A DNA stretch of 64,000 bases from contig JAJDCL010000011.1 in the NCBI GenBank assembly GCA_029260875.1, positions 62,401 to 126,400 of the forward strand, given 5' to 3'. Below are positions 417-21,849 of the stretch, in pieces (positions within the stretch are counted from its first letter, which is position 1; each line of letters begins with the position of its first letter). A program made the translations under genes and the position numbers. This DNA comes from Candidatus Saccharimonadota bacterium. GTDB lineage: Bacteria > Patescibacteriota > Saccharimonadia > Saccharimonadales > OFTM59. A model generated the notes under the pieces. It ran no database searches and was not told where the DNA came from. It saw only the letters and a list, made by a program, of their open reading frames with translations.

Positions 417-1454
417 TTACGGAATCCAGCGCTGGTTAAGCCCACCATGGCAATCCCAGACAATAATTTGCGTTCCATTAGCCGTCCCTGGGCCAGCAGC
501 GTCAAGACAACGGCCACTAGCGTGTGAAGCTAAAAGCGTACCAGTACTACCATTGCTGCCTCCCCATTTCTGATTTGCCCCACCGTGGCAATCATAAATC
601 TCAACTGGCGACATATTACGCCCGCCAAATGCGGCGTCTACGTCTAAACACTTACCGCTATGAACGGATCGTAGTGTGCCATCGCTGGCTATCCATTGCT
701 GATTTGTTCCGCCGTGGCAATCCCATAAGATGACCTGGGTGCCGTTTGCGGTGCCCCAGCCCGAAACGTCAAGACAACGATTGCCCGCACCAGCTGTTCT
801 TATACGAAACCCCTGGGAAGATGAAGCGCTACTACCTGGGTTACTCGCCCCGTTGTTGCCATTATTTCCTGTGCCGTTGGCCCCGTTAGCTCCACTACAA
901 CCGCTGCCAGTGCAGCTGCCACTTCCACCTGCCCCACCAGCCCCACCGTTGCTAGCCTGTTGCCCCGCTTGGCCAGCACTACCACCAGGGTTGCTTGTTC
1001 CGCCAGTAGAATTATTACCGGTACTGCCTGTATTATTACTAGAAGATGCTTCGGACGCTTTTAGTGCTTTCAGTGCCACCTTGTGGCGATCTTTCATGGC
1101 GTCTTCTTCGGCCTCGTTGTTGTCTTTTAGCAATTTGAGCTCATCTTCACAAACATCCTCTTGCTTGCCTGACATAGCGTCACATTGGTCGTCCTTGAGG
1201 TCTTCAACTGCTTTATGTTTATCTTTGAGCGCCCTTAGCTCAAGCTTTTGAGCAGCTTTTAGACTGCTTACGCCCGGACTCTGAGCTAAAGAGGTTACGA
1301 TGAATAGGGCTGAGGCAACACTAAACGCAATGACAAATAGCCATTTCTGCTTGCGTCGCTGATTTGTAGCAATTTTCTTAGTGCGTAAAGAACCTGAGCG
1401 AGTGTTTGATCTGGTGTTTCGTTTTGCAGATGTTTTTTTAGCAGTTTTTGCCAT
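417..1454 (-). CDS. N-anchored surface protein with a basic tail, TM helix, cysteine-containing coiled coil, Gly/Ser/Asn-rich spacer and a C-terminal ricin-B (beta-trefoil, QxW) lectin domain
   Basis: The N-terminus is MAKTAKKTSAKRNTRSNTRS...KQKWLFVIAFSVASALFIV (basic tail plus one TM). The C-terminus has three repeats with a CxD...G..QxW pattern (TNQQWIASDGTL, ANQKWGG, LNQRWIP), typical of ricin-B lectins. Confidence 0.7.
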   Translation of the reverse strand: MAKTAKKTSAKRNTRSNTRSGSLRTKKIATNQRRKQKWLFVIAFSVASALFIVTSLAQSPGVSSLKAAQKLELRALKDKHKAVEDLKDDQCDAMSGKQEDVCEDELKLLKDNNEAEEDAMKDRHKVALKALKASEASSSNNTGSTGNNSTGGTSNPGGSAGQAGQQASNGGAGGAGGSGSCTGSGCSGANGANGTGNNGNNGASNPGSSASSSQGFRIRTAGAGNRCLDVSGWGTANGTQVILWDCHGGTNQQWIASDGTLRSVHSGKCLDVDAAFGGRNMSPVEIYDCHGGANQKWGGSNGSTGTLLASHASGRCLDAAGPGTANGTQIIVWDCHGGLNQRWIP

Positions 1455-1564
1455 AAGAGCACTTCCTTAGGTAATTGTTAATACTTATGGGGTAATAATA
1501 CCATAACAACACTTATGCCTATAGCCCAATCACAATAATTACTAGATAGTAACAAGGGTGTCTC

Positions 1565-2623
1565 CTAGTAACCAGTAGCTCTGAGCGCTAAAATTTGTAG
1601 GTCCCGCGCTTCATCTGCAAGTTGGCAAACTGTATCTGACCCACGGCTCACATGAACGCCTGTAGCCTGTTCAAACATAATCATACGATCAGCTTCATTA
1701 GGGTTGCCGCTGTCAAAGGCTGCCATTAGTGGCGCAACAACCACACCTTTAGGGCCAGCAATAAATTTGCCACTTTGATACGTGCCGCACACTTCAGCCT
1801 GAGCCGTGGGGATCTTAGCCAAAGCGCTTGGTTGGTTAGTATCAAAAAGGCTCAGGCCACCCCCCATCCACTCACCGTACACAGGGTTGCCGTCAGAACC
1901 GTTGCCCATAAATATATTATCTCCAGGCGACGGGGAATTAGAGGCTACAAAAACGGATTTGCTTTTTATAAACTCAGTATCTGATCCCTCTACTAGACTC
2001 AGCACGGCTAGGTCTGTATCTTCATTTTGACGTATGGACACAGCAATTTTGTTAATCATGATTGCGCGTGTACCAGGAGCTGACACTGCATATTCAAATT
2101 TGTCTGGTAGGTCTTGGGCAATGTCGGCTACATCATTATTGCCAGCTTGTCTTAAACGGTCACGTATAGGCTGTGTTACTCGATTAACTCCTGTTTGCTT
2201 ATCCGTATACGGTTCAGAATCAAATGTATGAGCTGAGGTACCAATAACATACATGTCACCAACCTTATCGTCACTAACTCGTAAGGCTGCACCCTTACCG
2301 ATGTTCTGCCAAACCTTTGCCCCTTTTGACCGAGCCAGCACATCCACTGTAGCACTGGTTAAGTTGTCTCTAATCTCTTGAGAGACCTCGACCGCTTCAG
2401 AAGCAGATTCATGCATATTCTCATGAATAGTCTCTTGCCGTGCTGGTACATCCGCCACAACACTAGGCTTTAAAGCAAAAGCCAAGACTCCTACAGCCGC
2501 CAGAGCAAGCACGTTACGACTAACCCTACTTGTTAAACGTCTGTACTCGGGCCTTTCTATTGAGTGCCTAGGTTTATGTTTTTTATCTTGGTTTTCATCG
2601 GAAATACCGATTCTTCCATCCAT
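1565..2623 (-). CDS. N-anchored hypothetical exported protein, possibly a degenerate trypsin-like fold
   Basis: The N-terminus has a basic tail and a TM (NVLALAAVGVLAFAL). GTSAHTF, DLAVLSL and GNGSDGNPVY loosely resemble the His, Asp and GDSGGP segments of chymotrypsin-family proteases, but with a non-canonical Ser region. Confidence 0.35.
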   Translation of the reverse strand: MDGRIGISDENQDKKHKPRHSIERPEYRRLTSRVSRNVLALAAVGVLAFALKPSVVADVPARQETIHENMHESASEAVEVSQEIRDNLTSATVDVLARSKGAKVWQNIGKGAALRVSDDKVGDMYVIGTSAHTFDSEPYTDKQTGVNRVTQPIRDRLRQAGNNDVADIAQDLPDKFEYAVSAPGTRAIMINKIAVSIRQNEDTDLAVLSLVEGSDTEFIKSKSVFVASNSPSPGDNIFMGNGSDGNPVYGEWMGGGLSLFDTNQPSALAKIPTAQAEVCGTYQSGKFIAGPKGVVVAPLMAAFDSGNPNEADRMIMFEQATGVHVSRGSDTVCQLADEARDLQILALRATGY

Positions 2624-2678
2624 ATAGATATATTAGCATAAGCTTTACTAAAAGTCAAGATTAGAATATGTAGTTGGT

Positions 2679-4412
2679 TTACCATGTGCCCCAGCGCTGG
2701 TTGCTGGCACCTTTGAAGCAGTCCCAGATCTGTAAGTCTGTCCCGTTTGCAGTGTCATTATCCTTTACATCCAGGCATTTACCTGTAGCGCTTGAACGGA
2801 TAGTGCCATCACTATTCCATTGCCAGCGTTGGTGAGAACCACCATTACACGTGTAGATTTGCACATCTGAGCCGTTCCTGGTTTTGCCCCCTTCCACTTC
2901 AAGACATAGTCCACTAGCAGCAAGTCGGATCGTGCCATCAGTTGCCAAGCCCCACTTTTGATTGGAGTTACCTGTGCAGTCCCAGATCTGAGTATCTTTA
3001 CCTCTAGTTGTTCCGTCGGCGTCCATACAGCGACCACTGGCGTGACTTCTTATTACATATTGTGCAACTGCGGGAGGTTTATCGGTAGACGAAGAGGCCT
3101 TGGTTGTCGTAGTTTTTCCGTCAGGAGTAGTTGTGGTGCAAGTGCCATTCTTGCAAGATGTTTTGGTAGAGCCACTGTAGCTGGTGCCTTGGGACTGGCC
3201 CCCTATAGAAACCCCGCCCTGTGAACCCTTAGAGCCTTGTGAGCCACTCGTGCCAGATGTGCCTGAAGCACCCTGTGAGCCAGGAGCCCCAGGTGAACCG
3301 GGCGAGCCTTGAGTAGCTTTACCGGGGTTGCTAGCACCAGGCTGGCCAGGATTGCTCGCGCCAGGCTGACCGGCCTGACAGCCACCAACACAATTACTAG
3401 ATCCAGACTGACCGGGAAGTCCAGGTTGAGGAGCAGGTATCGGACGGCCAGCACCGATTATATCTTCCAGGGCACCGCCACCGCCAGCTTCCTCTAGGTC
3501 TACAATCTTATTGAACTCTGCCCACGTTGCGGCGCCCACTTTACCGTCACAGGTCCACCATGTTGTGGGCGCTCCCAATACGCATTTAGACCCGGGAACG
3601 CTGCGGTTATACTGCATAAATCGCACAAGATCGGCAGTCCGGCCATCATATATGCCCGTTTGAGGGACATTTTCAAGACCCATAACATTCTTTAAGAAGC
3701 CTTGTAGCACCTTGACGCACGGGTGGCTTGATCTATGATCAAGCGTCACTCTGCTGCATGTAGTCATGTTCCAGCTAGTTGGAGCGCTACTTGAGAGGGT
3801 CTGTGAGGGAGCACCAGAACCACTGCCCCCGACCGGTGTACAGGATGAATAGGAGCGTCCGGGATTTATGGGTGCACCGTTTTTTCGTATCTCAAAATGT
3901 AAATGGGCAGGCCCAGCTCCAGTTTCACCAGAATATGCAATTAGTTCCCCTTCGGAAACAGACCCAGTTTTTGCAATGCTACTTAGGTGCGCAAAACGAA
4001 ATGTATAGTTTCCAGATGTCAGGTCTGCCGATATACCATAACCTCCGTCCGGGCCCCTGCTAACAGTACCACTCCTGGGGGCGAAAATAGGCGTGCCGAC
4101 TGTAACGCCCGCACTGTTCGCGCCAAAATCAACACCTGCATGTTTACGACCATTGGGTCGGCCAGCTCCAAAACCGCCACCGTTATAATCTGTATTATTG
4201 CTATGTGCGGGCTTACCTTTTAACGGACATGTCATTGCAACTGTTTCTGCACGGCTAACATAAACCGTGGCAACACCAATAACAGCAAACAAGGTTATAT
4301 AAGCCAGCTTACGGATTCCTAAGGGCAATCCTTTCAGCATCAATAGACCCATAATTGATTGTCTGCTAGTTGAACGACTAATGGTTGTTTTGCGCTTGAT
4401 TTTGGGAGACAT
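2679..4412 (-). CDS. N-anchored M23/LytM-family metallo-endopeptidase fused to a collagen-like Gly/Pro/Ser spacer and a C-terminal ricin-B lectin domain
   Basis: The M23 signature is HAGVDFGA...G.PI.A...G.V...............HLHFEI. The middle has GQPGASNPGQPGASNPG collagen-like repeats. The C-terminus has repeated QxW beta-trefoil motifs (NQKWGL, HQRWQW, NQRWGTW). Confidence 0.8.
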   Translation of the reverse strand: MSPKIKRKTTISRSTSRQSIMGLLMLKGLPLGIRKLAYITLFAVIGVATVYVSRAETVAMTCPLKGKPAHSNNTDYNGGGFGAGRPNGRKHAGVDFGANSAGVTVGTPIFAPRSGTVSRGPDGGYGISADLTSGNYTFRFAHLSSIAKTGSVSEGELIAYSGETGAGPAHLHFEIRKNGAPINPGRSYSSCTPVGGSGSGAPSQTLSSSAPTSWNMTTCSRVTLDHRSSHPCVKVLQGFLKNVMGLENVPQTGIYDGRTADLVRFMQYNRSVPGSKCVLGAPTTWWTCDGKVGAATWAEFNKIVDLEEAGGGGALEDIIGAGRPIPAPQPGLPGQSGSSNCVGGCQAGQPGASNPGQPGASNPGKATQGSPGSPGAPGSQGASGTSGTSGSQGSKGSQGGVSIGGQSQGTSYSGSTKTSCKNGTCTTTTPDGKTTTTKASSSTDKPPAVAQYVIRSHASGRCMDADGTTRGKDTQIWDCTGNSNQKWGLATDGTIRLAASGLCLEVEGGKTRNGSDVQIYTCNGGSHQRWQWNSDGTIRSSATGKCLDVKDNDTANGTDLQIWDCFKGASNQRWGTW

Positions 4413-4450
4413 CTGATTTATCCAGTTTATGTTAATACTTTATATATGTG

Positions 4451-5083
4451 TTATTCCGGGATGCTGACTGGAATGTCAGTAGACTGTTCGCCTGCGTCGC
4501 TTGGCACTGCATCCTCTTCGTTTGCTTCATTATTTTCTTCTGGAGCGTCGGTTGGACCCTGGTTGTCAGTATCATTCTGATTGGTTTCACTTTCAAACAC
4601 AGGAGTCTTAGGTACAGGTAAGCACGGGGCACCCCTTATGCTTCCTAGTGGTTTCCAGCAACTTTCTGAGTCTTTCCATGGTTTGCTGCCGACTTTTTGA
4701 TTATTCCAGTCTGCAATAAACTTATCGTCCTGTATATTACTTGGTGCTAGACGGGCTTCACTGAAACCTCCATAATTGTTCCAGTCTTTATCATTATAGT
4801 CATATGCTCCGCCTGGTCTTTCATAACTGTGCTCGCCCCAAACGCCGTCACCACTTTCACATGCTCTTACTCTTCCAATCCAGTAACCGGCATTCCCCCA
4901 GTAACCTGGCTTGGATGCGGCAAAGGTTGTGAAAACAAGGTAACTACCAAGCATTGCGAAACCAAGTACAAAGAATAATGTTAACTGCTGTTGACGCAAT
5001 TTCTTACCTGTTAGCCAGTTTTTTACAGCACCTTTTTGACTATTTGTATTACGCATCTGGCGAGATTTTTGTGTCTTTTTCAT
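4451..5083 (-). CDS. N-anchored protein with an Rpf/transglycosylase-like (CESG) motif
   Basis: The internal Met start MKKTQKSRQ at 5083 is preceded by aggaa and avoids overlap with the upstream gene. The protein has a basic tail plus TM. RACESGDGVWGEHSYERPGGAYDYNDKDWNNYGG resembles the CESGGNW...YGG core of resuscitation-promoting-factor lysozyme-like domains. Confidence 0.4.
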   Translation of the reverse strand: MKKTQKSRQMRNTNSQKGAVKNWLTGKKLRQQQLTLFFVLGFAMLGSYLVFTTFAASKPGYWGNAGYWIGRVRACESGDGVWGEHSYERPGGAYDYNDKDWNNYGGFSEARLAPSNIQDDKFIADWNNQKVGSKPWKDSESCWKPLGSIRGAPCLPVPKTPVFESETNQNDTDNQGPTDAPEENNEANEEDAVPSDAGEQSTDIPVSIPE

Positions 5084-5096
5084 AAATGTTCCTGTT

Positions 5097-5744
5097 CTAG
5101 GTATCTCTCTCGTAGATACAGGTTTTAAGAAGCTCGCTACTGTTGTTAATGTCGAAGTGCTCACCGTAAGTTTCTCCGAAATCTTCATCATCCATGACGG
5201 CGGGATCACGCGTAATCGGAGTAGTAGAAGCTGGTTGAGCAATTTCAGAATCCTGATCGTTATTGCTGGCGCCTGTATTATCTGGTGATAATGCAGTTTT
5301 GTTAGCTACAGCTTGCCGATCACCTTCTGGAAGACTGGCTATGAATTGCTCTTCTGCGCTTCCAAAAATTGTTGCGTCCGGTAACGACTTACGAGCATCT
5401 GAATCTGGAACGGGCAAAAGCACTGGTTGCACCCATTCAGGGCTGCTTTTTCCCCTGCCTACAATAAAATTTAGGCGGTTGAATGTATCGCTGGCCCTTA
5501 AGCCAAAACGCTCACGAAGGCTTTCTCCCCTTGAATCAAGCGCCGAGCGACTGTCCGAGTTGGCGCCATAGTTGCTGGGAGCAAAGAATGTCATGACCAT
5601 ATAAATCCCTACGAGGCCCACAACAACCACCAACACGGAAGATAGTTGATATTTGCGGGAATGCCTAAGACGTCTGATGAGGTTTTCAGAAACGCTATAC
5701 TGTTGTTTTGACATCTTTTTCCTGGTAGTTTTTTTCATATTCAC
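5097..5744 (-). CDS. N-anchored hypothetical protein (basic tail plus TM, acidic C-terminus)
   Basis: The N-terminus is MNMKKTTRKKMSKQQ...LSSVLVVVVGLVGIYMVMTFF. It has the same anchoring architecture as its neighbours. Confidence 0.5.
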   Translation of the reverse strand: MNMKKTTRKKMSKQQYSVSENLIRRLRHSRKYQLSSVLVVVVGLVGIYMVMTFFAPSNYGANSDSRSALDSRGESLRERFGLRASDTFNRLNFIVGRGKSSPEWVQPVLLPVPDSDARKSLPDATIFGSAEEQFIASLPEGDRQAVANKTALSPDNTGASNNDQDSEIAQPASTTPITRDPAVMDDEDFGETYGEHFDINNSSELLKTCIYERDT

Positions 5745-5834
5745 AAACTGTTCCTGTGTCAGCTTGTTATTTTGGCCTGGTTTCAGTTATAGGCGCTTAT
5801 GCTTCGGGTGTCAAGACCCAGAAGATATCAGACA

Positions 5835-6302
5835 TCAACGACTCACTGAGCCACTTGGCGCGCTTGGGGCGCTTGGGGCACTAGATTGGCCTGTAGTACC
5901 GGGAGAGCTTGGAGCCCCGGGAGAGCCCGGTGTCCCTGGCGAACTAGTACCCGGGGTGCCGCTACCAGGCGTACCGGGGGTGCCCGTGCCATTGCTACCA
6001 GAGGTGCCGTTACAACCGCTGCCCGTACAGCTACCACTACCACCCGCACCGCCTGAACCGCCGTTAGTGCCTGGTTGCCCAGGGGCACCATTACTACCGC
6101 CACTAGTAGGGGCAGGTGGGCACAAACTGGCTGCCAGTACGCTAACCACAAAATACAAACCGATTAATGCAAAAGCTGTTACAAAAAGAGCCTTTTTGGG
6201 CGATTTTTTAAGACTTGCAGTAAAACGCGACAGATTCTTGCTTGACCCTGCGGTGGTTTTACGACGATTTGACGTGGTCTTCTCTATGCTTTTTTTAGCC
6301 AT
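5835..6302 (-). CDS. N-anchored Gly/Ser/Thr/Pro-rich collagen-like low-complexity surface protein
   Basis: MAKKSIEKTTSNRRKTTAGSSKNLSRF...ALFVTAFALIGLYFVV, followed by GAPGQPGTNGGSGGAGGSGSCTGSGC and an SSAPSAPSAPS tail. It shares the GGAGGSGSCTGSGC block with 417..1454. Confidence 0.55.
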   Translation of the reverse strand: MAKKSIEKTTSNRRKTTAGSSKNLSRFTASLKKSPKKALFVTAFALIGLYFVVSVLAASLCPPAPTSGGSNGAPGQPGTNGGSGGAGGSGSCTGSGCNGTSGSNGTGTPGTPGSGTPGTSSPGTPGSPGAPSSPGTTGQSSAPSAPSAPSGSVSR

Positions 6303-6303
6303 T

Positions 6304-7017
6304 TTATAATCCTGCCCAGCCCGACACCCTAGTGTTTATTGTCTGAATAACAGCCATAATGCCGTTGGTTCGTGGGCATAGAGCATTACCGGAAAAACCG
6401 CTATCGCCACTAACACCACCCGTACCTGACTGACCGCTAGCACCACTTGTGCCACCATTACTTGAGCCCGGGTTACTAGCGCCTGTATTACCGTTAGTCC
6501 CTGTGCCACTGGCGCCGGGGCTACTACTGCAGTTGGCGCCTGAACATGTTCCACTGCTACTTGTACCGTTTGCGCCACTGTTTGATTGACTAGACTGGCC
6601 TGTGCCTGATGAGCCGGCTGAGCCGCTTGTACCGCTAGTGCTAGTGCCAGCATTACCACTACCTGCTTGTCCGTCGGTTCCTGTTCCTGGTTGACCAGGT
6701 TGCCCTGTGCTTGTACCCGTTCCGTCCTGACCATCCTGCCCGTCCTTTACGAGTTGGGTCTGACCAGTGGTTTTATTAATGCCAGCCAAGTTACTGAAAA
6801 AGCCACCAATACGCTCGCGGACGCTCAGACTTTGGTTGCCTTCCGAGCCAGAGGTTAGCGAGCTAACTTCGTTGGCCGATTGATAAGCAGCGACAGACGA
6901 GATGATCAAGTAAATGCCAAGTGCGGCAACAGCAAACATAATGAACGTCGCCTTATTGCTGTTAGAACCTCGACGGTTGACCGAAAGTTTAGGAGAATTC
7001 TTTGATGTTTTTTTCAT
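6304..7017 (-). CDS. N-anchored Gly/Ser/Thr-rich low-complexity surface protein
   Basis: MKKTSKNSPKLSVNRRGSNSNKATFIMFAVAALGIYLIISS, then DGQDGQDGTGTSTGQPGQPGTGTDGQAGSG collagen-like repeats. Confidence 0.55.
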   Translation of the reverse strand: MKKTSKNSPKLSVNRRGSNSNKATFIMFAVAALGIYLIISSVAAYQSANEVSSLTSGSEGNQSLSVRERIGGFFSNLAGINKTTGQTQLVKDGQDGQDGTGTSTGQPGQPGTGTDGQAGSGNAGTSTSGTSGSAGSSGTGQSSQSNSGANGTSSSGTCSGANCSSSPGASGTGTNGNTGASNPGSSNGGTSGASGQSGTGGVSGDSGFSGNALCPRTNGIMAVIQTINTRVSGWAGL

Positions 7018-7134
7018 GTATGACAGAACTATTGATCCCTAAGATTTGTGAGTTTTAATATCACTTGCATTAACTTATATGCGCTTATGTTTATGATGTC
7101 AACGCGATTTGTACTGGACTAATGATCTAAAACC

Positions 7135-7710
7135 TTAACGACAAGAGTTACTACTACCGCCACTGGCGCCGTTACTGCCACTTGCGCCATTGCCACTACT
7201 ACTCGCACCGCCCGCGCCGTTGGTGCCATTACCGCCATTGCCACTACTACCCGCGCTGCCATTAGAGCTGCCGGTTCCGGGTTGACCCGGGGAGCCGTTT
7301 GTAGCTGCAAACGTGCTAGCGCCACACACACCGCTATTTTGCTTGTTTTGCTGCTTAAAGGCATCTTTTGTTCGGTCGTATTCAGCATCGTTTCTGTCTT
7401 TTAATGCATCGGCTTCTGATTTGCAAAGCTTTTTTCGCGTCCTGTCATCTATAGTCTTGCATTGGGCTTTCTTTGCGTCTTCTGCTGCTTCATGACGATC
7501 TTCCATACGTTGAAGCTCGGCCTTTTGGGCACTTGTTAAAGAGGCTGCTTCTGAAGTCATAACCAAAATACTACCAAGCACAGCAAAAAGCAGTACCAAA
7601 ATTAACATGCGCTGCTTGCTGGATAAGGCGCGGATTCTATCCACTAGCCCTTTAGGTTTTTTATCTGATACTCTGTTTTTCCGTGCACTAGCAGATTTTG
7701 ATTTCGCCAT
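7135..7710 (-). CDS. N-anchored coiled-coil and Gly/Ser/Asn-rich surface protein, paralog of 417..1454 lacking the lectin
   Basis: The start MAKSKSASARKN at 7710 follows ttaaggaaaattacgta. The protein has a TM (MLILVLLFAVLGSILVM), a Cys-pair coiled coil (AQKAELQRMEDRHEAAEDAKKAQCKTIDDRTRKKLCKSEADALKDRNDAEYDRTKD) and a G/S/N tail. Confidence 0.55.
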   Translation of the reverse strand: MAKSKSASARKNRVSDKKPKGLVDRIRALSSKQRMLILVLLFAVLGSILVMTSEAASLTSAQKAELQRMEDRHEAAEDAKKAQCKTIDDRTRKKLCKSEADALKDRNDAEYDRTKDAFKQQNKQNSGVCGASTFAATNGSPGQPGTGSSNGSAGSSGNGGNGTNGAGGASSSGNGASGSNGASGGSSNSCR

Positions 7711-7831
7711 TACGTAATTTTCCTTAATTTTTGTTTGGTTCACTTATCGTGTAGACATAAGCTTATTCCGAGTGCACCTACCGTGTCAACCCAATGGCTT
7801 TCATTTTATAACCAGACTAAGTAGATTACTG

Positions 7832-8311
7832 CTAAATTGACTTACAAGTTTTAGTGCCATTTTTTGTCGTGCAAACTGTCCCTGTGGAGGGGGCGCTAGG
7901 GGCTGAGGGGGCGCTGGGGGCGCTGGATTGACCAGGCGCACCAGGAGCTGAATTGCTGCCGTTGCTGCCGTTACTACCAGGGGCCGTTTTCACATCTTCT
8001 CCTCGGCCGTCTGTGCCTGGCTGACCCGTTGAGTCTTTACCTGACGTACCGCTGCAATTATTGCTGCTGCTTACAACGCAAGTATTGTCCGTCCCTGTGG
8101 CACCATCCGCGCCTTTACCGTTTAGCCCTTCAGGTGGGGGGCATAGTGCAAGAGCGCCAATCACTAGTAACGTACCGGCCGCTGCAAAACCCAGAATGAA
8201 TAATGATTTTTTAGGTGAGCGCCTAGCCCATAATCCTACACGCTGCAAACGACTGGTAGGTTTAGTTGTTTTAGGTTTCTTGTAGCTTGTTTTTGTTGGT
8301 CTTTTTGCCAT
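7832..8311 (-). CDS. N-anchored Gly/Ser/Thr-rich surface protein
   Basis: MAKRPTKTSYKKPKTTKPTSRLQRVGLWARRSPKKSLFILGFAAAGTLLVIGALALCPPP. It shares the C-terminal SSAPSAPSAPSAPS block with 5835..6302. Confidence 0.5.
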   Translation of the reverse strand: MAKRPTKTSYKKPKTTKPTSRLQRVGLWARRSPKKSLFILGFAAAGTLLVIGALALCPPPEGLNGKGADGATGTDNTCVVSSSNNCSGTSGKDSTGQPGTDGRGEDVKTAPGSNGSNGSNSAPGAPGQSSAPSAPSAPSAPSTGTVCTTKNGTKTCKSI

Positions 8312-8313
8312 GA

Positions 8314-9543
8314 TTATCTACCTATAAAACCCATTAATCTTGTATACATAAATTCACCCAGTGCCGTAACCCCGGTTGTTTTAGGACACAGAGCTTTTTT
8401 TGCCTTACTATTGCTGTTACTCCTGGACCCCCCGCTTAACGTACTCGAACTAATAAGGCTGCGGGGAGGCCCACCCGAATCATACATCGGCTTATTATTA
8501 ACTAAGGGTCTGCCGCCTTTGCAGTCAGTGTTTAAACAGTCATTATAAAGTTGAAAAATTGTTTTTCCAGTTATACTTTTCAGAAGCTCGTCAGAATATG
8601 TGTCATTTCTGAGGGCAGTGTGTAGTTTCTTGACAATATTTTTATCGTGTTTTGTGAGATATTTTAGAAAGGCCGCCCCACAATCGTAACCAGAGCTATA
8701 GTCTACATCAAAGCAAGAGCTAGTACGATCTACACCCAATACTTGTGGCACATAATCCGCCATTCCTTCAACTAGCCACTTTGGATATTGAGGTGTTCCG
8801 TACGATTTATAGCTCTGCACCATGTGTGTTATTTCATGACTCAATAGACGCGTATTCGAGCTATCACTAAATGTGCGCACCGTGTCAATGTCAAGATAGG
8901 CCGCTGCTCGATCCCAGTAGAACACGCAGCCTATCGCCCCCTCGCAAAGTTTTTCGCCTGTTTTAAAATTTGGAGGCAGATAGCTAAAGCTGTAGTCATC
9001 AGCGAGTTTGCCTAGGATAATAATGTATGGTGATCGATAAATAGAAGAGCTGAGCTGTTGTTCTACTCTCGGAAATATATTCTTGCAGTTTGCAAGAAGC
9101 TTCTCCGCTTTAATCTTCATGCTAAGATCTTGGCTATAATCAACCCAGCACATTCCGTTATCAATGACTCCTGGTTTACCCGGCATAACAGGGTCATCTA
9201 CCACAACAGTGCCCGGTGTTTGTTTTGAGGCTGGGCTGGCATTGCCTGGAGCGCCACCTCCTTTATTTGAGCCACTGACGGTGAGCGTAGAATTGTTCTT
9301 GCTTGCCTCAGAAGTCTTCTTTTGCCAAGGCAAGGTTACCTTTTTGCCAAAAAACGTAAACCCGTATTGATTTGCGCCAGCAGTGCTAGACCACAAGGAA
9401 GAGACAATCATATAGCCACCTAAAAACATAAAAGCGAGAGCCACAAAAACAACACTACGCTGCCTAAAGCTAGTCCTTAGATTTCTAAGTTTCTGGGATT
9501 GTGAATAGCTGAATGGTTGGTTGGCGAATCTTTTGTTGGCCAT
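8314..9543 (-). CDS. N-anchored putative zinc metallopeptidase of the basic-secretory-protein (BSP, PF04450-like) type
   Basis: HEITHMVQ (HExxH) followed by WLVEGMADYV, then GYDCGAAFLKYL and LLKSITGKTIFQLYNDC match the BSP-family pattern HE.THV.Q...EG.ADYV...GY...A.FL.Y. The N-terminus has a basic tail plus TM. The start at 9543 is preceded by aaaaagggtcaaa; the alternative start is 9573. Confidence 0.55.
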   Translation of the reverse strand: MANKRFANQPFSYSQSQKLRNLRTSFRQRSVVFVALAFMFLGGYMIVSSLWSSTAGANQYGFTFFGKKVTLPWQKKTSEASKNNSTLTVSGSNKGGGAPGNASPASKQTPGTVVVDDPVMPGKPGVIDNGMCWVDYSQDLSMKIKAEKLLANCKNIFPRVEQQLSSSIYRSPYIIILGKLADDYSFSYLPPNFKTGEKLCEGAIGCVFYWDRAAAYLDIDTVRTFSDSSNTRLLSHEITHMVQSYKSYGTPQYPKWLVEGMADYVPQVLGVDRTSSCFDVDYSSGYDCGAAFLKYLTKHDKNIVKKLHTALRNDTYSDELLKSITGKTIFQLYNDCLNTDCKGGRPLVNNKPMYDSGGPPRSLISSSTLSGGSRSNSNSKAKKALCPKTTGVTALGEFMYTRLMGFIGR

Positions 9544-9618
9544 TTTGACCCTTTTTCTGTTTGTATTTATCACGCAGTGAGATAGTACCTCGTACGATAT
9601 ATGGCTATATTAAACGAG

Positions 9619-12386: not shown

Positions 12387-13355
12387 CTAGTTGTCAGCAG
12401 GCATAGATGAATCTCTTTGAATGGCGTAGACTACCAGGCGCTGATTATAGGTGTTAGATGTAGCATCATACGAGCCAGCCTCAGTGATCAAATTAAGTCC
12501 CGGCAACCCCGGTACGGCTGTTGCTAGCATGGGCTCCAGCGGGTCAACATCCCTAAAGGCTTGGAGTTTTGCTACATAGTATGTGAAGATTTTACCATCG
12601 CCCGCCTCTAGCCTAAGTTCGTCCCCTGGCTTTAAACTTGTTATATCATGAAAAATACCGGGCTTGCTTGGGCCAGACATGTGGCCAGTCAAAACCACCG
12701 CACCAACCTCTCCAGGCTTGACACTACTTTCATACCAGCCGACATCATATATATTCGAAGGCAATCTGATTTCTGTTTCCGTACCAACGCCCACTCTGCG
12801 GACACGTGCGGAAAGCCCCATGTCATCTATGTGCATAATTCGCGGCAAATTACTGGCAACCTGATAACTCTGTATATTTGTGGGTCGACGTTCACTGATC
12901 TCGTTACTAGTATCTAGCATAGCTTCTACACTAACCCTGCTATGAGACCTATCGGCTTCTGCTTGCTTGCTGGAATGTGCACTGCTTAGTAATATGACTG
13001 AAACAAACAAAACCACAGCCAAACAGATCACTGGTAGGTACATCTTTAACTTGTTTAGACGGGGAAATGTTGGGCCCGGGAACCGCCTGAACTTAATATC
13101 AAATATGTTATCGGAACGCTTTAGCTGAACAGGCAGGCCTGAGAAGCGAGATAGTTTAGGAGGCGTACCGGACAATGATTCAAGGTATTCGCCCTGGTTT
13201 GCCGGCACGTATCTTGACGCACGCTCTCCTATACCGTCAATACTACGAGGCTGAACACGCTGAACAGAACGCCGGTAATAGGGCGAGGGTGAGCTGGTGC
13301 GCGGTTCTGGCGTGCCAACAAGTACTCTGTGCTGACGTGGCCGGTTTGATGCCAT
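12387..13355 (-). CDS. Sortase-fold membrane protein lacking the catalytic cysteine (TLxTC Cys replaced by Glu)
   Basis: The N-terminus has a long basic region plus a TM (MYLPVICLAVVLFVSVILL). The domain aligns with SrtA: IHIDDMGLSARVRRVG, VVLTGHMSGP (His), GLNLITEAGS in place of LTLITC, and NQRLVVYA (Arg). The DNA reads ATC ACT GAG GCT at the expected Cys codon. Confidence 0.55.
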   Translation of the reverse strand: MASNRPRQHRVLVGTPEPRTSSPSPYYRRSVQRVQPRSIDGIGERASRYVPANQGEYLESLSGTPPKLSRFSGLPVQLKRSDNIFDIKFRRFPGPTFPRLNKLKMYLPVICLAVVLFVSVILLSSAHSSKQAEADRSHSRVSVEAMLDTSNEISERRPTNIQSYQVASNLPRIMHIDDMGLSARVRRVGVGTETEIRLPSNIYDVGWYESSVKPGEVGAVVLTGHMSGPSKPGIFHDITSLKPGDELRLEAGDGKIFTYYVAKLQAFRDVDPLEPMLATAVPGLPGLNLITEAGSYDATSNTYNQRLVVYAIQRDSSMPADN

Positions 13356-17046: not shown

Positions 17047-18801
17047 ATGCGAGTCTCTGATGCCTTTGTTGAGCAACTATTAAAAAAATCCGGCAAGGTC
17101 ACCGACCAACAGCTGGCAGATTTGCGTGAGCAAGAAAAAAACGAAAAAAAGCCACTACAAGATCTGGCTGTTTCATCTAGCCTGATCTCCGAAGCCGAAC
17201 TTACCAAGGCCTACGCAGAAGAGATTGATGTGCCCTTTGTTGAGATAGACACAAAAGCCTTATCTAAAGAACTCTTGCATTTAGTACCCGAACGCATAGC
17301 CAGACAGTACCGTGCGGTTTTATATGGGGTTGATAAGAATGGCAACAAACAGCTAGCAATGGCCGACCCTGACGACGTTCAGGCGATTAGTTTCTTGCAG
17401 AAACAGCTAGGTTCGGACTTAAGAATATATGTGGCAACACAGTCAAACATCTTGACTGCTCTTGATCAATACCGTGGCAATATTGGTACGGAGATCAGTA
17501 AAGTAGTCTCTGAAAGTGACGGCGACGGCGACGGCGACGAAGAGGTTAGTGAAGAGGATCTAGCTGAAGATTCGCCCATTGCTCAGACAGTAAACCTGAT
17601 AATTGAATATGCTGTAAACTCTGGCGCCAGTGATATTCACATTGAACCACGGGAAAAGTTTGTTCAGATTCGCTACCGTATTGACGGCGTTTTGCGAGAG
17701 GCAAACAAGCTGCCAAAGCGGACTTTGGCAGCTATGGTTTCACGTATCAAGATTTTGTCTGGACTTAAGATTGACGAGAGGCGTGTGCCACAGGACGGAC
17801 GCTTCAAGCTGAATATGAACGGCCGTATATTTGCCTTTCGGGTGTCAACCTTGCCTGTGTCCGATGGCGAGAAGGTTGTTATGCGTGTTTTGGATGAATC
17901 GAGCGACCCTTTAACGCTTGAAAAGCTTGGTTTTTGGGGCTTGGCACTTGAGCACATTCAGTCTGCAATCAAGCAGCCGCATGGAATGATTTTAGTTACT
18001 GGTCCGACTGGTTCGGGTAAATCCACAACCCTTCATAGTGTGCTTAACATTTTGAACCGGCCTGATATCAATATTTCTACGGTTGAAGACCCTGTTGAAT
18101 ATCGGCTGGAGGGCGTAAATCAGACACAGACCAACAACACCGCTGGCATGACTTTTGCAAACGGCCTGCGGGCGCTGCTTAGGCAGGACCCTAATGTCAT
18201 TATGGTTGGCGAGATTCGTGACGGCGAGACAGCTGGACTAGCTGTACAGGCGGCTTTGACCGGGCATCTCGTCTTTTCAACACTACACACCAACAATGCT
18301 GCTACGTGTTTGCCACGCCTTCTAGATATGAGTATAGAGCCGTTCCTAATCGCTTCAACTGTGCGCGTCGTAATCGGGCAACGTCTGGTGAGGCGGCTTG
18401 TTCCGGAGGAGTGTGAACAATACACACCAGACGACAAAGAGCGCAAAGAGATTGAGCGAGCTTTTTCCATCAAGACAAACGAGGATTGGAAACGGGTACT
18501 CGAGCTGGCCTCTGAGGCTCAGACCGCGTTTGATAGGCCTAAAACAAGCAAGCTGACCTTTTGGCGTCCGAAAAAGGATCTGGGCGAAGGCCATACAGGC
18601 TATAGGGGCCGAATGGGCATTTACGAGGTCCTCAGCGTATCTACCGAGATACAAAAGATGATTGTGGCAAACGCCACCAGCGAGCAGATCCAGAGCGAGG
18701 CAGTAAAAGAGGGTATGGCAACCATGCAGCTCGATGGACTAATCAAAGCAATGTTGGGCATGACTTCAATAGAAGAAATATTAAGAGTAACCAGGGAATA
18801 G
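17047..18801 (+). CDS. pilB: Type IV pilus assembly ATPase PilB (GspE family)
   Basis: N-terminal T2SSE_N-like domain, Walker A GPTGSGKSTTL, and GspE motifs (RQDPNVIMVGEIRD). It contains an in-frame (GACGGC) repeat that encodes DGDGDGDEE. Confidence 0.9.
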   Translation: MRVSDAFVEQLLKKSGKVTDQQLADLREQEKNEKKPLQDLAVSSSLISEAELTKAYAEEIDVPFVEIDTKALSKELLHLVPERIARQYRAVLYGVDKNGNKQLAMADPDDVQAISFLQKQLGSDLRIYVATQSNILTALDQYRGNIGTEISKVVSESDGDGDGDEEVSEEDLAEDSPIAQTVNLIIEYAVNSGASDIHIEPREKFVQIRYRIDGVLREANKLPKRTLAAMVSRIKILSGLKIDERRVPQDGRFKLNMNGRIFAFRVSTLPVSDGEKVVMRVLDESSDPLTLEKLGFWGLALEHIQSAIKQPHGMILVTGPTGSGKSTTLHSVLNILNRPDINISTVEDPVEYRLEGVNQTQTNNTAGMTFANGLRALLRQDPNVIMVGEIRDGETAGLAVQAALTGHLVFSTLHTNNAATCLPRLLDMSIEPFLIASTVRVVIGQRLVRRLVPEECEQYTPDDKERKEIERAFSIKTNEDWKRVLELASEAQTAFDRPKTSKLTFWRPKKDLGEGHTGYRGRMGIYEVLSVSTEIQKMIVANATSEQIQSEAVKEGMATMQLDGLIKAMLGMTSIEEILRVTRE

Positions 18802-18802
18802 T

Positions 18803-20026
18803 ATGCCAACATTTAAATACACAGCAATTGACAAAACAGGTAAGCGTGTAACAGGCACGACCGAAGCAGCAAGCGCTGCTGTTGCAACCGCCAATCTTAA
18901 GTTGCGTGAACTGCGCCCTATTGAGGTTGCGCTAGCAAAAAATGGAAGCCTGGTGAGCAAACTGCCCTTTGGGCCGGGCAAGAAAAAAGTTAAGTCTAAA
19001 GACCTGGTGGTTTTCACCAGACAGCTTGCGACTATGATAAATGCCGGCGTGCCACTTGTAAGGTCCTTAGCAACTTTGCAGGTTCAAACCGAAAACCCAA
19101 ACTTTAAACAGCATATAGTTGAGGTCACTAAGGAAGTAGAGGGTGGTGCAACTTTTGCAGATGCACTTGAAAGGCATTCGGTAGTATTTTCGCCGATTTA
19201 TATAAATATGGTCAGGGCCGGTGAAGCGGGCGGTATTTTAGACGCAATCCTGAAGAAGCTCGCCACTCAGCAAGAAAAAGACGAAAAGATCAAAGGTAAG
19301 TTTAAAAGCGCCATGACATATCCGATCATCCTGCTGACCATTACTACGCTGGTTTTTTTGGCATTGATGGTCTTTGTTATGCCAAAGATAGGTAAAATCA
19401 TTCAGGATCTGGCCGGGCCTAGTGCCGAGTTACCCCCCCTCACAATAGTTATGCTTGGCATCAGCAACTTCCTGGTTGCTAGGTGGTATGTACTCCTTGG
19501 CATTGGCGTAATTGCGGGCGCAGTACTATCACGATACATAAGCACGCCAGGGGGGCGACGAAAGAAGGATAAGATTCTTTTGAAATTGCCTGTTATCAAA
19601 ACTGTTATCAAAAAGGTCGCTATAGCCCGTTTTGCCCGTATTTTTGCATCGCTTATGAGTGCTGGAGTTACGGTTATTGATTCGATTGAGGTAACTGCTA
19701 AAGCTATTGGCAACAGTGTGATTGAAGAAGAACTAATGGCAGCCTCTAAAACAGTCGCAAATGGCCAGCAACTATCCGTACCAATTAGTGCAAGCAAGGT
19801 CTTCCCCCCTATTGTGGGGCAGATGCTATCTGTAGGCGAAGAAACCGGTAAGACAGATGAGATCCTGGTGAAAGTTGCTGATTTTTACGAGGATGAAGTG
19901 GATGTAGTTGTAGATAGTCTTAGCTCTATACTGGAGCCTATTATGATCGTAGTAATGGGTACATTGGTCGGTCTTATAGCTGCCAGCGTGATCGGGCCAA
20001 TCAGCAATCTTTCCAATCAGATATAG
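18803..20026 (+). CDS. pilC: Type IV pilus platform protein PilC (GspF family)
   Basis: Two GspF repeats, the N-terminus MPTFKYTAIDKTGK, and TM segments. It is adjacent to pilB. Confidence 0.9.
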   Translation: MPTFKYTAIDKTGKRVTGTTEAASAAVATANLKLRELRPIEVALAKNGSLVSKLPFGPGKKKVKSKDLVVFTRQLATMINAGVPLVRSLATLQVQTENPNFKQHIVEVTKEVEGGATFADALERHSVVFSPIYINMVRAGEAGGILDAILKKLATQQEKDEKIKGKFKSAMTYPIILLTITTLVFLALMVFVMPKIGKIIQDLAGPSAELPPLTIVMLGISNFLVARWYVLLGIGVIAGAVLSRYISTPGGRRKKDKILLKLPVIKTVIKKVAIARFARIFASLMSAGVTVIDSIEVTAKAIGNSVIEEELMAASKTVANGQQLSVPISASKVFPPIVGQMLSVGEETGKTDEILVKVADFYEDEVDVVVDSLSSILEPIMIVVMGTLVGLIAASVIGPISNLSNQI

Positions 20027-20192
20027 CACACCACCCGAAGACCTTACACATATAGACCTAATAAATAAACCACACCTAATGCACAGGGAAAAGTATTGCG
20101 CGATATGAAACATGTGATAGTGTATAACCATAAGCTGTAAAAAGCTTGAAATACTAATTACAATTTACAAATAAGAAGGGTGGGCATTATAA

Positions 20193-20681
20193 ATGTTCAA
20201 GACACTTAAAAAAGCACAAGACGGCTTCACGATTATCGAACTTTTGATCGTAATCGCGATTATTGCTGTTTTGGCAGGGCTCGTACTTAACAACTTCCAG
20301 GGTGCACAGGCAAAGGCTCGTGACACACAACGTTTAACCGACATAAACAACATACACAGTAAACTAGAAGAATTTTACAACGAGAAGGGTTTTTACCCTG
20401 ATACTTTTGAAGCAGATGATTTCCCTGGTATCGACGAGGATAGCCTAATAGACCCTGATGGTGCAGAGATAGTCAAAAGCGCACCAGTGGCTAACGAAGC
20501 TGGAGCTACAGTAGAACCGGACAGTATAGACGAGTACATTTACATACCATTCCCTACGAGCTGTACTACTGTAAACGAAGACTGTGAGGGTTATGTCCTA
20601 AAGTCTTATATCGAAAAGCCAACCGCTTCTACGACAAACCCATATGTCAAAAAGGGATTGAACAACCCTGCAACCCCTTAG
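20193..20681 (+). CDS. pilA: Type IV major pilin (prepilin with class III signal)
   Basis: KKAQDG|FTIIELLIVIAIIAVLAGLV is a prepilin cleavage and methylation motif with Glu5. Confidence 0.8.
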   Translation: MFKTLKKAQDGFTIIELLIVIAIIAVLAGLVLNNFQGAQAKARDTQRLTDINNIHSKLEEFYNEKGFYPDTFEADDFPGIDEDSLIDPDGAEIVKSAPVANEAGATVEPDSIDEYIYIPFPTSCTTVNEDCEGYVLKSYIEKPTASTTNPYVKKGLNNPATP

Positions 20682-20705
20682 TTTGAGCTTTTAAAAAGCT
20701 TTTCA

Positions 20706-20748
20706 GAGAACCCTGCCAAGTGCTGAAACGGCAGGGTTCTTTTGTTGT
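20706..20748 (+). terminator. Rho-independent terminator after the pilin gene
   Basis: agaaccctgcc / ggcagggttct is an 11 bp stem followed by tttgttgtt. Confidence 0.7.
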
Positions 20749-20787
20749 TGGTTATGCTATAATTTCTCTAAAGCAAAGTGGGCCTTA

Positions 20788-21849
20788 ATGAACAAAATCC
20801 TCTTTTATAAAGACAAAGCAGTATTTGGACTTGATATCGGCTTTAGCAGTATAAAAGTCATGCAGATTGAGCGTGTAGGCAAAAAACGTGTAGTCGGTGG
20901 CTACGGTGTGGTCAATTTTGACCCCAGCGCTGTCGTGGATGGTGTTATTAAGAACCCTGAACTGCTTGCAAAGTCAGCGTATGAGTTATTTAAGAAAAAT
21001 TTAGTTGGCGATATAACTACTCGTCGCGTTGCATTAGCTATCCCCGCTGTTCGCACATTTAACCGCACCGTGCAACTACCAAAGATGGGTCGTAAACAAC
21101 TGGATCAAGCTATCAGGCTAGAAGCAGAACAATACATTCCCCTCCCCCTAGATAGCCTGTACCTAGATTACGAGATAATAAGACAAACCGACGAAGCACT
21201 AGAGCTGCTGGTCGTCGCCACACCACGAACCATAATAGACTCTTACATATCATGGATTCGCCTAATAGGGCTAGAGGTGGCCGCCATTGAAACAACTATC
21301 GGTTCTGGCAGTCGGTTATTTGTCCAAGCAGAAGACAGTAGCGTACCTACTGTACTCATAGATTTTGGGTCAGTGTCTTCTGACATTACGGTCTACGATC
21401 AAACCCTCGTTGTAACCGGTACAGTGCCGGGCGGGGGTGATAGCTTTAGTAGCCTGATCGCTGACTCTTTAAACGTTACTAAGCAAGAGGCACACGTGAT
21501 CAAAACAAAATATGGCCTGGGGGTTAGCAAAAAACAGAAAGAAATATCCGACAGCCTTTCACCTCTCTTAGAGCAACACCTTAAAGAAATACGGCGCATG
21601 ATTCGTTACTATGAAGAACGGTCTGATACGGATCGCAAAATTGGCCAGGTAGTTACCATGGGCGGTGGGGCTAATATGCCAGGCCTGTCAGAGCACCTCA
21701 CAAATCAACTTCGCTTGCCGGTTCGGATGTGCAGCCCTTGGCAAAAGCTAAACTTTGGCGGGCTGCAGCCACCAAGCTCTGTGGAGAAGTCTATGTATAT
21801 AACGGTCGCTGGCCTGAGCCTAATAGAACCGGGCGAAATATACGCATGA
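20788..21849 (+). CDS. pilM: Type IV pilus assembly protein PilM (actin-like ATPase)
   Basis: FGLDIGFSSIKVMQIE and the actin/HSP70-fold pattern. It overlaps pilN with an ATGA junction. Confidence 0.85.
   Translation: MNKILFYKDKAVFGLDIGFSSIKVMQIERVGKKRVVGGYGVVNFDPSAVVDGVIKNPELLAKSAYELFKKNLVGDITTRRVALAIPAVRTFNRTVQLPKMGRKQLDQAIRLEAEQYIPLPLDSLYLDYEIIRQTDEALELLVVATPRTIIDSYISWIRLIGLEVAAIETTIGSGSRLFVQAEDSSVPTVLIDFGSVSSDITVYDQTLVVTGTVPGGGDSFSSLIADSLNVTKQEAHVIKTKYGLGVSKKQKEISDSLSPLLEQHLKEIRRMIRYYEERSDTDRKIGQVVTMGGGANMPGLSEHLTNQLRLPVRMCSPWQKLNFGGLQPPSSVEKSMYITVAGLSLIEPGEIYA

Follow-up and report, generated by a model that had tools for sequence, protein, structure and literature searches.

Lysostaphin, ALE-1 and zoocin A are secreted modular enzymes in which an M23 metallopeptidase head with intact HxxxD, His and HxH motifs is followed by a linker and a C-terminal wall-targeting domain, either an SH3b domain or the TRD of zoocin. 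The C-terminal domain of lysostaphin and zoocin A recognizes the target cell and not the producer. The M23 enzymes of the Gram-negative DD-endopeptidase type (NMB0315/NGO1686, Csd1/Csd3, Vibrio ShyA and E. coli MepM) remodel the wall of their own cell, while RipA and RpfB exemplify a known type of autolytic pair, an Rpf-like enzyme acting together with an endopeptidase. Lectin modules of the ricin-B/CBM13 family are found on plant-polysaccharide hydrolases, such as S. lividans Xyn10A (1knl/1knm), a S. olivaceoviridis xylanase (1isv) and a S. avermitilis arabinopyranosidase (3a21), and in animal collectins a collagen stalk carries a lectin head. Here we describe a gene whose product shares features with each of these systems. 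It lies in a 64,000-nucleotide stretch of DNA from a Candidatus Saccharimonadota bacterium (assembly GCA_029260875.1, contig JAJDCL010000011.1, positions 62,401 to 126,400), which we call the window. All coordinates given below are positions in this stretch, residue numbers refer to the 577-residue product of the gene, and identities are at the amino acid level unless stated otherwise.

The gene was proposed in an initial annotation to join an M23 peptidase to a ricin-B lectin via a collagen-like spacer. This open reading frame is real, and Pfam supports both of these domains. Taken with the peptidoglycan-binding domain described below, its features make it very probable that the product is an active M23 peptidoglycan endopeptidase that is exported and is held in position by a peptidoglycan-binding domain and a tethered lectin. 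A more tentative but plausible reading is that it acts on the wall of a bacterial host or neighbour. All parts of the protein come from well-known families; what sets it apart among modular bacteriolysins and autolysins is their combination, the Saccharibacteria setting, the conserved short Gly-X-Y stalk and a pattern of head-swapping.

Domain architecture of the M23-ricin-B protein

The Pfam Peptidase_M23 profile matches residues 90-184 of the protein (E 1.3e-16; 61 bits against a cutoff of 28.7 bits). The HxxxD...HLH signature that had been noted from the sequence is indeed present as H91-AGV-D95 and H170-L-H172, and is accompanied by an upstream catalytic histidine, H142, within the string FAHL. 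These five residues are invariant in an alignment of six homologues, as are C62 and C191, which flank the domain. In a phmmer comparison with PDB sequences the region matches NMB0315/NGO1686, Csd1, LytU and LytM (E 2e-11 to 2e-4), with H91..D95 aligned to the H..D of NMB0315 and LytU, and the AHL and HLH strings to those of the solved enzymes. A full-length AlphaFold2 (AF2) model built from a 6-sequence alignment has a mean pLDDT of 44.5 and leaves the ricin part unfolded; only its M23 core is usable, being of moderate quality (pLDDT mostly 57-88 per 10-residue block). The top matches of this core in a Foldseek search of the PDB all have the M23/LytM fold (Csd1/2/3, NMB0315, ShyA, LytM and EnvC; E ~1e-7), with a Foldseek probability of 1.0 for Csd1, Csd3, NMB0315 and LytM. 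Thus, the domain combines the HxxxD and HxH motifs and the upstream His of the M23 family with a profile score above the curated threshold and a LytM fold, and we infer that it is a catalytically competent zinc peptidoglycan endopeptidase. The retrieval of EnvC LytM domains, along with a faint NCBIfam match to ActS (E 0.006), would also fit a non-catalytic LytM-type regulator that activates an amidase in the manner of EnvC or NlpD. Degenerate LytM factors of this type lack the zinc ligands, whereas H91, D95, H142, H170 and H172 are all intact here, and we rejected this highly improbable alternative for that reason.

The closest solved M23 domains, in sequence (E 2e-11 to 1e-6; 30-38% identity) as well as in fold, are those of the Gram-negative enzymes listed above, and sub-threshold NCBIfam matches point to Pgp3, MepM and ShyA. 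However, the accessory LysM domains, coiled coils and inhibitory domain 1 of these enzymes are absent from the protein, and their substrate specificity is not transferable to it at such similarity. LytM, LytU and zoocin A are likewise retrieved by both sequence and fold, with low sequence similarity to the staphylococcal M23 enzymes (E 1e-4). The likeness to the lysostaphin type lies in the overall plan. In place of SH3b or the zoocin TRD the protein has CBM13/ricin-B together with PG_binding_1, and its linker of ~150 residues contains a Gly-X-Y run. No SH3b-type Pfam model is among its matches at E<=0.05, which sets it apart from the lysostaphin type at the C-terminus. By analogy, it may work like a bacteriolysin of the lysostaphin type without being a member of that class.

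The fusion had been read as one in which a lectin takes the place of a LysM or SH3b-type wall-binding module. This proved wrong: the M23 domain is followed by a PG_binding_1 domain before the spacer begins, so the lectin supplements a peptidoglycan-binding module and does not stand in for one. The domain is degenerate in the protein itself, where PF01471 matches residues 231-270 below threshold (E 0.0066; 17 bits against a 23-bit cutoff). It is matched in all 6 family members (best E 2.3e-8) and scores 43-63 bits (E 1e-11 to 1e-17) in four distant members, P0127, P0107, P0160 and P0128, with E-values of 9e-14 to 3e-17 in the first three. The AF2 model places helices at 213-219, 231-243, 257-270 and 294-308 in this region.

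The C-terminal lectin is matched by the Pfam Ricin_B_lectin profile at 452-574 (E 1.3e-31; 110 bits against a 29-bit cutoff). The three QxW repeats claimed for it are present as QKW at 485, QRW at 528 and QRW at 572, and each repeat has a cysteine pair (462/479, 503/522 and 546/565) that is invariant across 47 ricin domains. In the phmmer search against the PDB the C-terminus aligned with the Streptomyces CBM13 domain 1knl (E 1.5e-25), with the repeats in register. Because the full-length model had left this part unfolded, the domain was predicted again by itself using the 47-sequence alignment, which gave a pLDDT of 95.8 and a pTM of 0.89. Foldseek superimposes this model on the Streptomyces CBM13 domains (1knl, 1isv and 3a21) with TM-scores of 0.86-0.90 and rmsd values of 1.3-1.8 Å. 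Hence, all three checks that had been suggested for the initial annotation, namely a LytM fold, a beta-trefoil and conservation of the catalytic His and Asp residues, came out in its favour.

The lectin is 40-43% identical to the three Streptomyces modules and shares with them the three QxW repeats, a Cys pair per repeat, and Asp/aromatic/Asn-Gln sites in repeats 1 and 3. The set of residues which, from the structures of ricin B and CBM13, we take to form the sugar site is complete in repeat 1 (D464, Q475, W477, N484 and Q485) and repeat 3 (D548, Q561, W563, N571 and Q572), and none of these residues varies among the six homologues. Repeat 2 differs from 1knl in having Glu505 for Asp and His527 for Asn, which sets the protein apart from the Streptomyces modules. 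A further difference is that the Streptomyces CBM13 domains occur on plant-polysaccharide hydrolases (compare loci L002-L007), whereas the present one is attached to a peptidoglycan peptidase. With three QxW repeats, a beta-trefoil and canonical sugar sites in two of the three repeats, it is a ricin-B/CBM13 domain, and could bind a wall-associated glycan via the two intact predicted sites. We also considered transfer of the domain from actinomycete hosts and rejected it: its identity of 40-54% to actinomycete CBM13s is typical family-wide, and the actinomycete copies are on plant-polymer hydrolases. Outside the family the closest lectin match in a word-indexed search is P0007, a partial protein annotated as coming from the chytrid fungus Chytriomyces hyalinus, with repeated ricin-B domains (38-40% identity), which is probably a case of generic CBM13 similarity.

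Between the two binding modules lies the Gly/Ser/Thr/Pro-rich spacer. It contains a CxGGC motif (341-345), two copies of QPGASNPG (349-364), the run (GXY)11 and a Thr-rich CKNGTC hairpin (420-425); the string NCVGGC is this protein's version of a CxGxGC-type mini-motif. The GQPGASNPG repeats had been called collagen-like. They are present, in the form of the string GQPGASNPGQPGASNPG at 348-364, a twofold repetition of an 8-residue unit, and with a unit of this length they are out of Gly-X-Y register. The genuine collagen-like stretch of 11 uninterrupted triplets follows them. Of 100,000 shuffles of the linker that preserved its composition, none reached this length, and all five homologues have runs of 10-11 triplets, with Gly invariant at 10 triplet positions. 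Tandem Repeats Finder detected no DNA tandem array within the gene, so that the Gly-rich region cannot be put down to simple repeat expansion. Just before CxGGC the protein is missing ~31 spacer residues (IGQGTGG...GGSGT; alignment columns ~546-577) found in each of the five homologues.

In having an unbroken and conserved series of Gly-X-Y triplets directly before a lectin, the protein recalls Scl1/Scl2, BclA and the animal collectins. Bacterial collagen-like proteins typically have 20 or more triplets, are Pro- or charge-rich and form triple helices. In contrast, the present run is short and proline-poor, with Pro at 3 and Lys, the sole charged residue, at 1 of the 22 X and Y positions. There is no match to Pfam Collagen at E<=0.05, and with only 11 triplets the protein lacks the long Gly-X-Y region of the Scl/BclA class. 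One could speculate, at rather long odds, that the 10-11 triplets and a CxGGC knot form a short collagen-type triple helix that trimerizes the CBM13 heads into a collectin-like, high-avidity stalk, with the stalk sequence serving as a junction at which M23 and Rpf-like heads are swapped on one host-glycan-binding module. If so, the stalk and its exchangeable heads would make up a modular system for displaying effectors, able to diversify, with which episymbionts attack host walls.

At the N-terminus the ATG start is supported by the homologue P0002, whose first residues are MSPKTK. The first 35 residues contain 9 Lys/Arg and are followed by the hydrophobic stretch LAYITLFAVIGVATVYV (36-53; 17-18 residues), which is modelled as a helix spanning 31-53, and directly thereafter by an AxA-like site (SRA|ET). 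Two of the distant family members have short canonical signal peptides, ending in ALA|ES in P0127 and AYA|EV in P0128. The protein has 16 cysteines, in conserved pairs. Based on the basic n-region, hydrophobic segment and SRA motif, the paired cysteines and the signal peptides of the distant members, the protein is predicted to be exported, probably with signal-peptide cleavage after SRA56.

Relatives of the protein and its mosaic divergence

In a scan of species-representative genomes, one full-length relative was recovered, the M23 protein P0003 encoded at locus L001 of 'MAG: Candidatus Saccharibacteria bacterium isolate OFTM277' (MAG, metagenome-assembled genome). The window is syntenic with this locus: the encoded RNase Y is 94%, the YmdB-like phosphoesterase 78%, the sortase 70%, the small secreted proteins 51-80% and a second ricin protein 67% identical between the two. 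Four more homologues, from Sequence Read Archive (SRA) assemblies, occur in the same gene order, and in the six contigs RNase Y/YmdB on one side and tRNA-Pro on the other enclose a conserved chromosomal island. Judging from this synteny, and from the type IV pilus and ComEC genes that it carries, the window is chromosomal DNA of a close relative of the OFTM277 MAG.

The word-indexed search, which covered 5.8 billion proteins, returned six close family members only. An HMMER search run exhaustively on 1.84 billion representatives, with domains then mapped locally and scanned against Pfam, added further proteins with M23, PG_binding_1 and ricin domains, i.e. the four distant members P0127, P0128, P0107 and P0160, and others that combine M23 with two ricin domains (P0137, P0118, P0050 and P0044). 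Since further proteins of the former kind exist, the architecture is uncommon but not unique; a literature search found no paper describing an M23-ricin fusion. The four distant members and the proteins with M23 and two ricin-B domains (some with fn3) share with the present protein the domain order, a 'CP' motif before the M23 domain and a Cys-Gly-rich junction after it. Unlike it, the metagenomic relatives, at 27-40% identity, have short canonical signal peptides and are devoid of the long Gly-rich spacer, (GXY)11 and CxGGC.

The two halves of the protein have diverged in very different ways. Mean pairwise identity among the six homologues is 39% in the M23 domain and 35% in the PG-binding region, as against 61% in the spacer and 78% in the lectin. 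The half comprising M23 and PG_binding_1 is 55% identical to its counterpart at locus L008, and only 28-33% to the four other positional orthologues. In the linker and lectin half identities are 61-85%, with L001 being closest (85%) and L008 at 63%; the nearest relative is thus L008 for the N-terminal half and L001 for the C-terminal half. For comparison, the neighbouring secreted proteins are 42-80% and the housekeeping genes 77-94% identical. In nucleotide sequence the window and L001 align along the island at 66-79% identity, while inside the gene the alignment spans only 2678-3386. One end of this segment is the stop codon, and the other, at 3386, falls inside CxGGC (codons 341-345; 3378-3392). 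The incongruence of the two halves points to recombination within the spacer, to very rapid divergence of the catalytic half, or to both. Such mosaic behaviour is typical of proteins at an interface between organisms and less expected for a housekeeping autolysin.

The M23 part also matches tape-measure proteins of Arthrobacter, Mycobacterium, Streptomyces and Staphylococcus phages (343 records in the phage search; best E 2e-11, identity <60%), which raises the question of whether the gene is a remnant of a phage lysin or tail-associated lysin on a prophage. Cellular M23 enzymes are matched at least as well, and the surplus of actinophages may, we assume, stem from the choice of phages that are sequenced and deposited. 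Moreover, there are no flanking phage genes and the gene lies in the chromosomal island conserved in six contigs. We rejected a phage origin, to which we give hardly any credence, the similarity to tape-measure proteins being generic for M23.

Candidate target walls

Cultivated Saccharibacteria are obligate episymbionts; host cell-wall glycans affect their binding, and the lectins responsible are yet to be identified (PMC11623550). Secreted peptidoglycan hydrolases of a predator belonging to the Candidate Phyla Radiation (CPR) were earlier proposed to attack the host wall (PMC8080830). Given that the locus is syntenic with a Saccharibacteria MAG and that cultivated members of the group are obligate episymbionts, the foreign cell wall named as the target in the initial annotation is biologically reasonable; it was nonetheless overstated there, as an uncleaved anchor would put the enzyme at its own wall. 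In favour of a host wall we count the episymbiotic lifestyle, the host-glycan binding, the earlier proposal for CPR hydrolases, a head that is mosaic and hypervariable, and the island setting. The sequence of events would then be as follows: 1) the protein is exported via Sec and its signal peptide probably cut after SRA56; 2) the compact M23 head cleaves peptide cross-links of peptidoglycan while the adjacent PG_binding_1 domain grips it; 3) the CBM13/ricin-B lectin, on its tether of ~150 Gly/Ser/Thr-rich residues, binds a wall-associated glycan via the two intact sugar sites; 4) the wall attacked is that of the host or a neighbour, at the site of contact with the episymbiont; 5) the protein teams with the Rpf-like glycan-strand enzyme encoded next to it and with the putative proteases of the island, so that the host wall could be thinned or opened for attachment, nutrient or DNA uptake, or lysis.

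Several observations weigh against a host wall as the target. The presence of MurJ and a sortase in the window implies that the organism builds its own peptidoglycan wall, for which it needs endopeptidases, and the gene under study is the sole M23 gene within the window. The M23 domain starts ~5 residues past the hydrophobic segment, which, if it were an uncleaved anchor, would hold the active site at the membrane and wall of the producer. The lectin is the most conserved part of the protein (72-90% pairwise identity across relatives), a pattern that fits a constant, possibly self, glycan better than diverse hosts, and its likeness to actinomycete CBM13s is generic for the domain family and no proof of transfer from a host. 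Finally, M23 combined with PG_binding_1 is a common arrangement in housekeeping enzymes and phage lysins.

A serious rival, though a less probable one, is a housekeeping autolysin. The enzyme would work on its own Gram-positive-type wall, with the lectin on a secondary wall polysaccharide of the producer and PG_binding_1 on the producer's peptidoglycan, and M23, in partnership with the Rpf-like enzyme, would cut the cell's own cross-links so that it can grow and its daughter cells part, much as with RipA and RpfB in mycobacteria. The hydrophobic segment abutting the catalytic domain, the want of a second M23 gene in the window, the MurJ and sortase genes, the strong conservation of the lectin expected for a constant self ligand, and the match of the Rpf-like and endopeptidase genes to a known autolytic pairing all agree with it. 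Against it stands the fact that the catalytic and PG-binding half diverges and recombines fastest (28-33% identity against 94% for RNase Y), which is unexpected where the substrate is the presumably constant peptidoglycan of a single lineage. Furthermore, the gene is found among hypervariable secreted proteins and not among division or wall-synthesis genes, and the AxA-like site after the hydrophobic segment, like the clearly cleavable signal peptides of the distant homologues, points away from an anchor.

The contrast between a constant lectin and a changing head could also be explained by an arrangement in which the two ends of the cleaved protein serve different cells, the lectin and stalk anchoring it non-covalently to a glycan on the producer's surface, analogous to SLH, GW or choline-binding anchors, and a swappable head of M23 and PG_binding_1 facing the host. 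This would account for the conserved lectin and stalk, including the preserved stalk length with its 10-11 Gly-X-Y triplets, as well as for the variable, recombining head, and is in keeping with the similar Gly-rich CxGxGC/CxGGC spacers of neighbouring secreted proteins, one of which (417..1454) ends in ricin-B. However, a self-anchoring role is not known for CBM13, and the C-terminal domains of lysostaphin and zoocin A recognize the target and not the producer; we regard this arrangement as unlikely.

The question of how Saccharibacteria and other ultra-small episymbionts recognize and breach the walls of their hosts has in this family a concrete candidate, with a catalytic head, two binding modules, a partner enzyme next door and head-swapping on a conserved lectin stalk. 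If the host wall is the target, the lectin could serve to probe host range and the enzyme as a scaffold for narrow-spectrum lysins; if the enzyme is an autolysin, it would give a first handle on the wall polysaccharide of Saccharibacteria themselves. We see the protein as no surprise, but as a candidate that deserves experiments.

Neighbouring genes and related loci

The features of the gene, the island and the wider window are collected in Table 1.

Table 1. Coordinates of the M23-ricin-B gene, its domains and other features of the window
Feature	Position	Strand	Basis or remark
Complete coding sequence, 577 aa + stop: Sec-type N-terminus, M23, PG_binding_1, Gly-rich spacer, ricin-B/CBM13	2679..4412	minus	ATG start
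Residues 1-58: basic n-region, hydrophobic segment 36-53, then SRA|ET; predicted signal peptide or N-terminal anchor	4239..4412	minus	sequence; AF2 helix
Residues 59-190: M23 (LytM-fold) metallopeptidase domain	3843..4238	minus	Pfam, PDB sequence matches, Foldseek, invariant residues
Residues 205-300: PG_binding_1-like helical domain, degenerate	3513..3800	minus	Pfam across family; AF2 helices
Residues 301-450: Gly/Ser/Thr/Pro-rich spacer, ~150 aa	3063..3512	minus	sequence, alignment; pLDDT ~25
Residues 369-401: 11 uninterrupted Gly-X-Y triplets, collagen-like run	3210..3308	minus	shuffles; homologue conservation
Residues 451-577: ricin-B/CBM13 beta-trefoil	2682..3062	minus	Pfam, 1knl alignment, AF2, Foldseek, invariance
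Upstream neighbour, secreted Rpf-like protein ('ACESGDG...GAY..W')	4451..5242	minus	38 bp from the M23 gene; transitive homology
Downstream neighbour, 352 aa, secreted, hypervariable	1565..2623	minus	no family match
Second ricin-B protein: N-anchor, coiled coil, Gly-rich spacer with SCTGSGC, ricin-B	417..1454	minus	
419-aa exported protein with HEITH motif, BSP family	8314..9573	minus	PF04450, 'peptidase of plants and bacteria', E 3.8e-15
Island of at least 10 proteins, exported or anchored at the N-terminus, each with a long basic n-region	417..9573	minus	syntenic in OFTM277 and four SRA contigs
Type IV pilus set (PilB, PilC, pilin with N-methylation motif, PilM), short ComEC, class F-like sortase	17047..21849; 30110..31573; 12387..13355	plus; minus; minus	

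Among the proteins encoded by the island are a BSP-family HExxH peptidase, small Gly-rich proteins, the Rpf-like and M23 proteins, an S1-like candidate and a coiled-coil/ricin-B protein. Several of them have in common a Gly/Ser/Asn/Pro-rich spacer with a CxGxGC-type motif, which takes the form SCTGSGC in the proteins at 417..1454 and 5835..6302 and TCSGANC in that at 6304..7017; the latter two, at 5835..6302 and 6304..7017, also contain Gly-X-Y runs of 8 triplets. The gaps of 38 bp and 55 bp between the M23 gene and its neighbours suggest that they may be co-transcribed. A scan for promoters and terminators gave counts near shuffle expectation (18 promoter-like sites against 12.8 +/- 3.1 in shuffles, and 8 terminator-like sites against 10.7 +/- 3.4), and singled out no site delimiting a transcription unit for the gene.

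The start of the upstream Rpf-like gene is likely an ATG near 5083 (MKKTQKSRQ...), favoured because a start at the listed TTG (5242) would run into the preceding open reading frame. The encoded protein is homologous to the N-terminal extension of the 750-residue P0003 of OFTM277 (tblastn, 33% identity, E 3e-23), where the Rpf-type PF06737 ('Transglycosylase-like') gives a weak match (E 8.7e-5); the same profile matches a paralogue at L008 with E 2.7e-18. No direct Pfam match was found on the window's own copy, and the assignment is transitive only. The domain is fused to M23, PG_binding_1 and ricin in OFTM277 (L001 7371..9623) and to PG_binding_1 and ricin-B at L008 (4695..5843). The fusion with M23 argues that both enzymes act on the same substrate, and the architecture at L008 marks ricin-B as a recurrent targeting module on wall-active proteins of this clade. 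These fusions suggest that PG_binding_1 and ricin-B are the clade's standard targeting pair for wall-active enzymes. A PF06737-related gene directly upstream, and its fusion to M23 in OFTM277, is also where the likeness to the mycobacterial RipA-RpfB pair lies, and by analogy suggests coupled cleavage of glycan strands and peptide stems. The two cases differ in that the endopeptidase is M23 here and not NlpC/P60, and in the transitive nature of the Rpf-like assignment.

The downstream neighbour has no tblastn or nucleotide match in L001, though both of its flanks align there at 74-76% nucleotide identity. The genes in its position elsewhere seem to encode proteases of the S1/trypsin-like kind; the counterpart at L008 has a weak match to Trypsin_2 (E 0.002) along with TAAHC and GGSGGS motifs. 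It is possible that the neighbour is a hypervariable S1-like protease, in which case the Ser motif of the window's copy would perhaps be degenerate. In the second ricin-B protein of the island the lectin domain is 46% identical to that of the M23 protein. An NCBIfam match of this second protein to the collagen-like adhesins SclA/SclB (E 3e-7; 30 bits against a 325-bit cutoff) was judged compositional and rejected. The BSP-family protein shows a faint flagellinolysin-like match, and adds a further secreted metallopeptidase to the island.

Elsewhere the window encodes PilB, PilC, PilM and a pilin, ComEC, RecA/RecX, DnaK/DnaJ, FtsH, MurJ and LepA. The type IV pilus, ComEC and sortase genes lie within 10-27 kb of the island. 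In cultivated Saccharibacteria such functions are associated with binding to the host and with uptake of DNA.

Among the distant members of the family, P0127 is encoded on a contig of 1.19 Mb with 47% GC (locus L012; ERZ25039476 contig_17805). The RNase Y encoded there is 61% identical to that of the window, so its source is probably a more distant member of the same broad group. At 8001..9239 of L012 lies the gene for this compact 412-residue protein of M23, PG_binding_1 and ricin-B, which has a canonical signal peptide and no Gly-rich stalk. The gene adjoins a serine recombinase and a restriction-modification pair, and a small open reading frame near it matches Pup (PF05639), which is unusual outside Actinobacteria.

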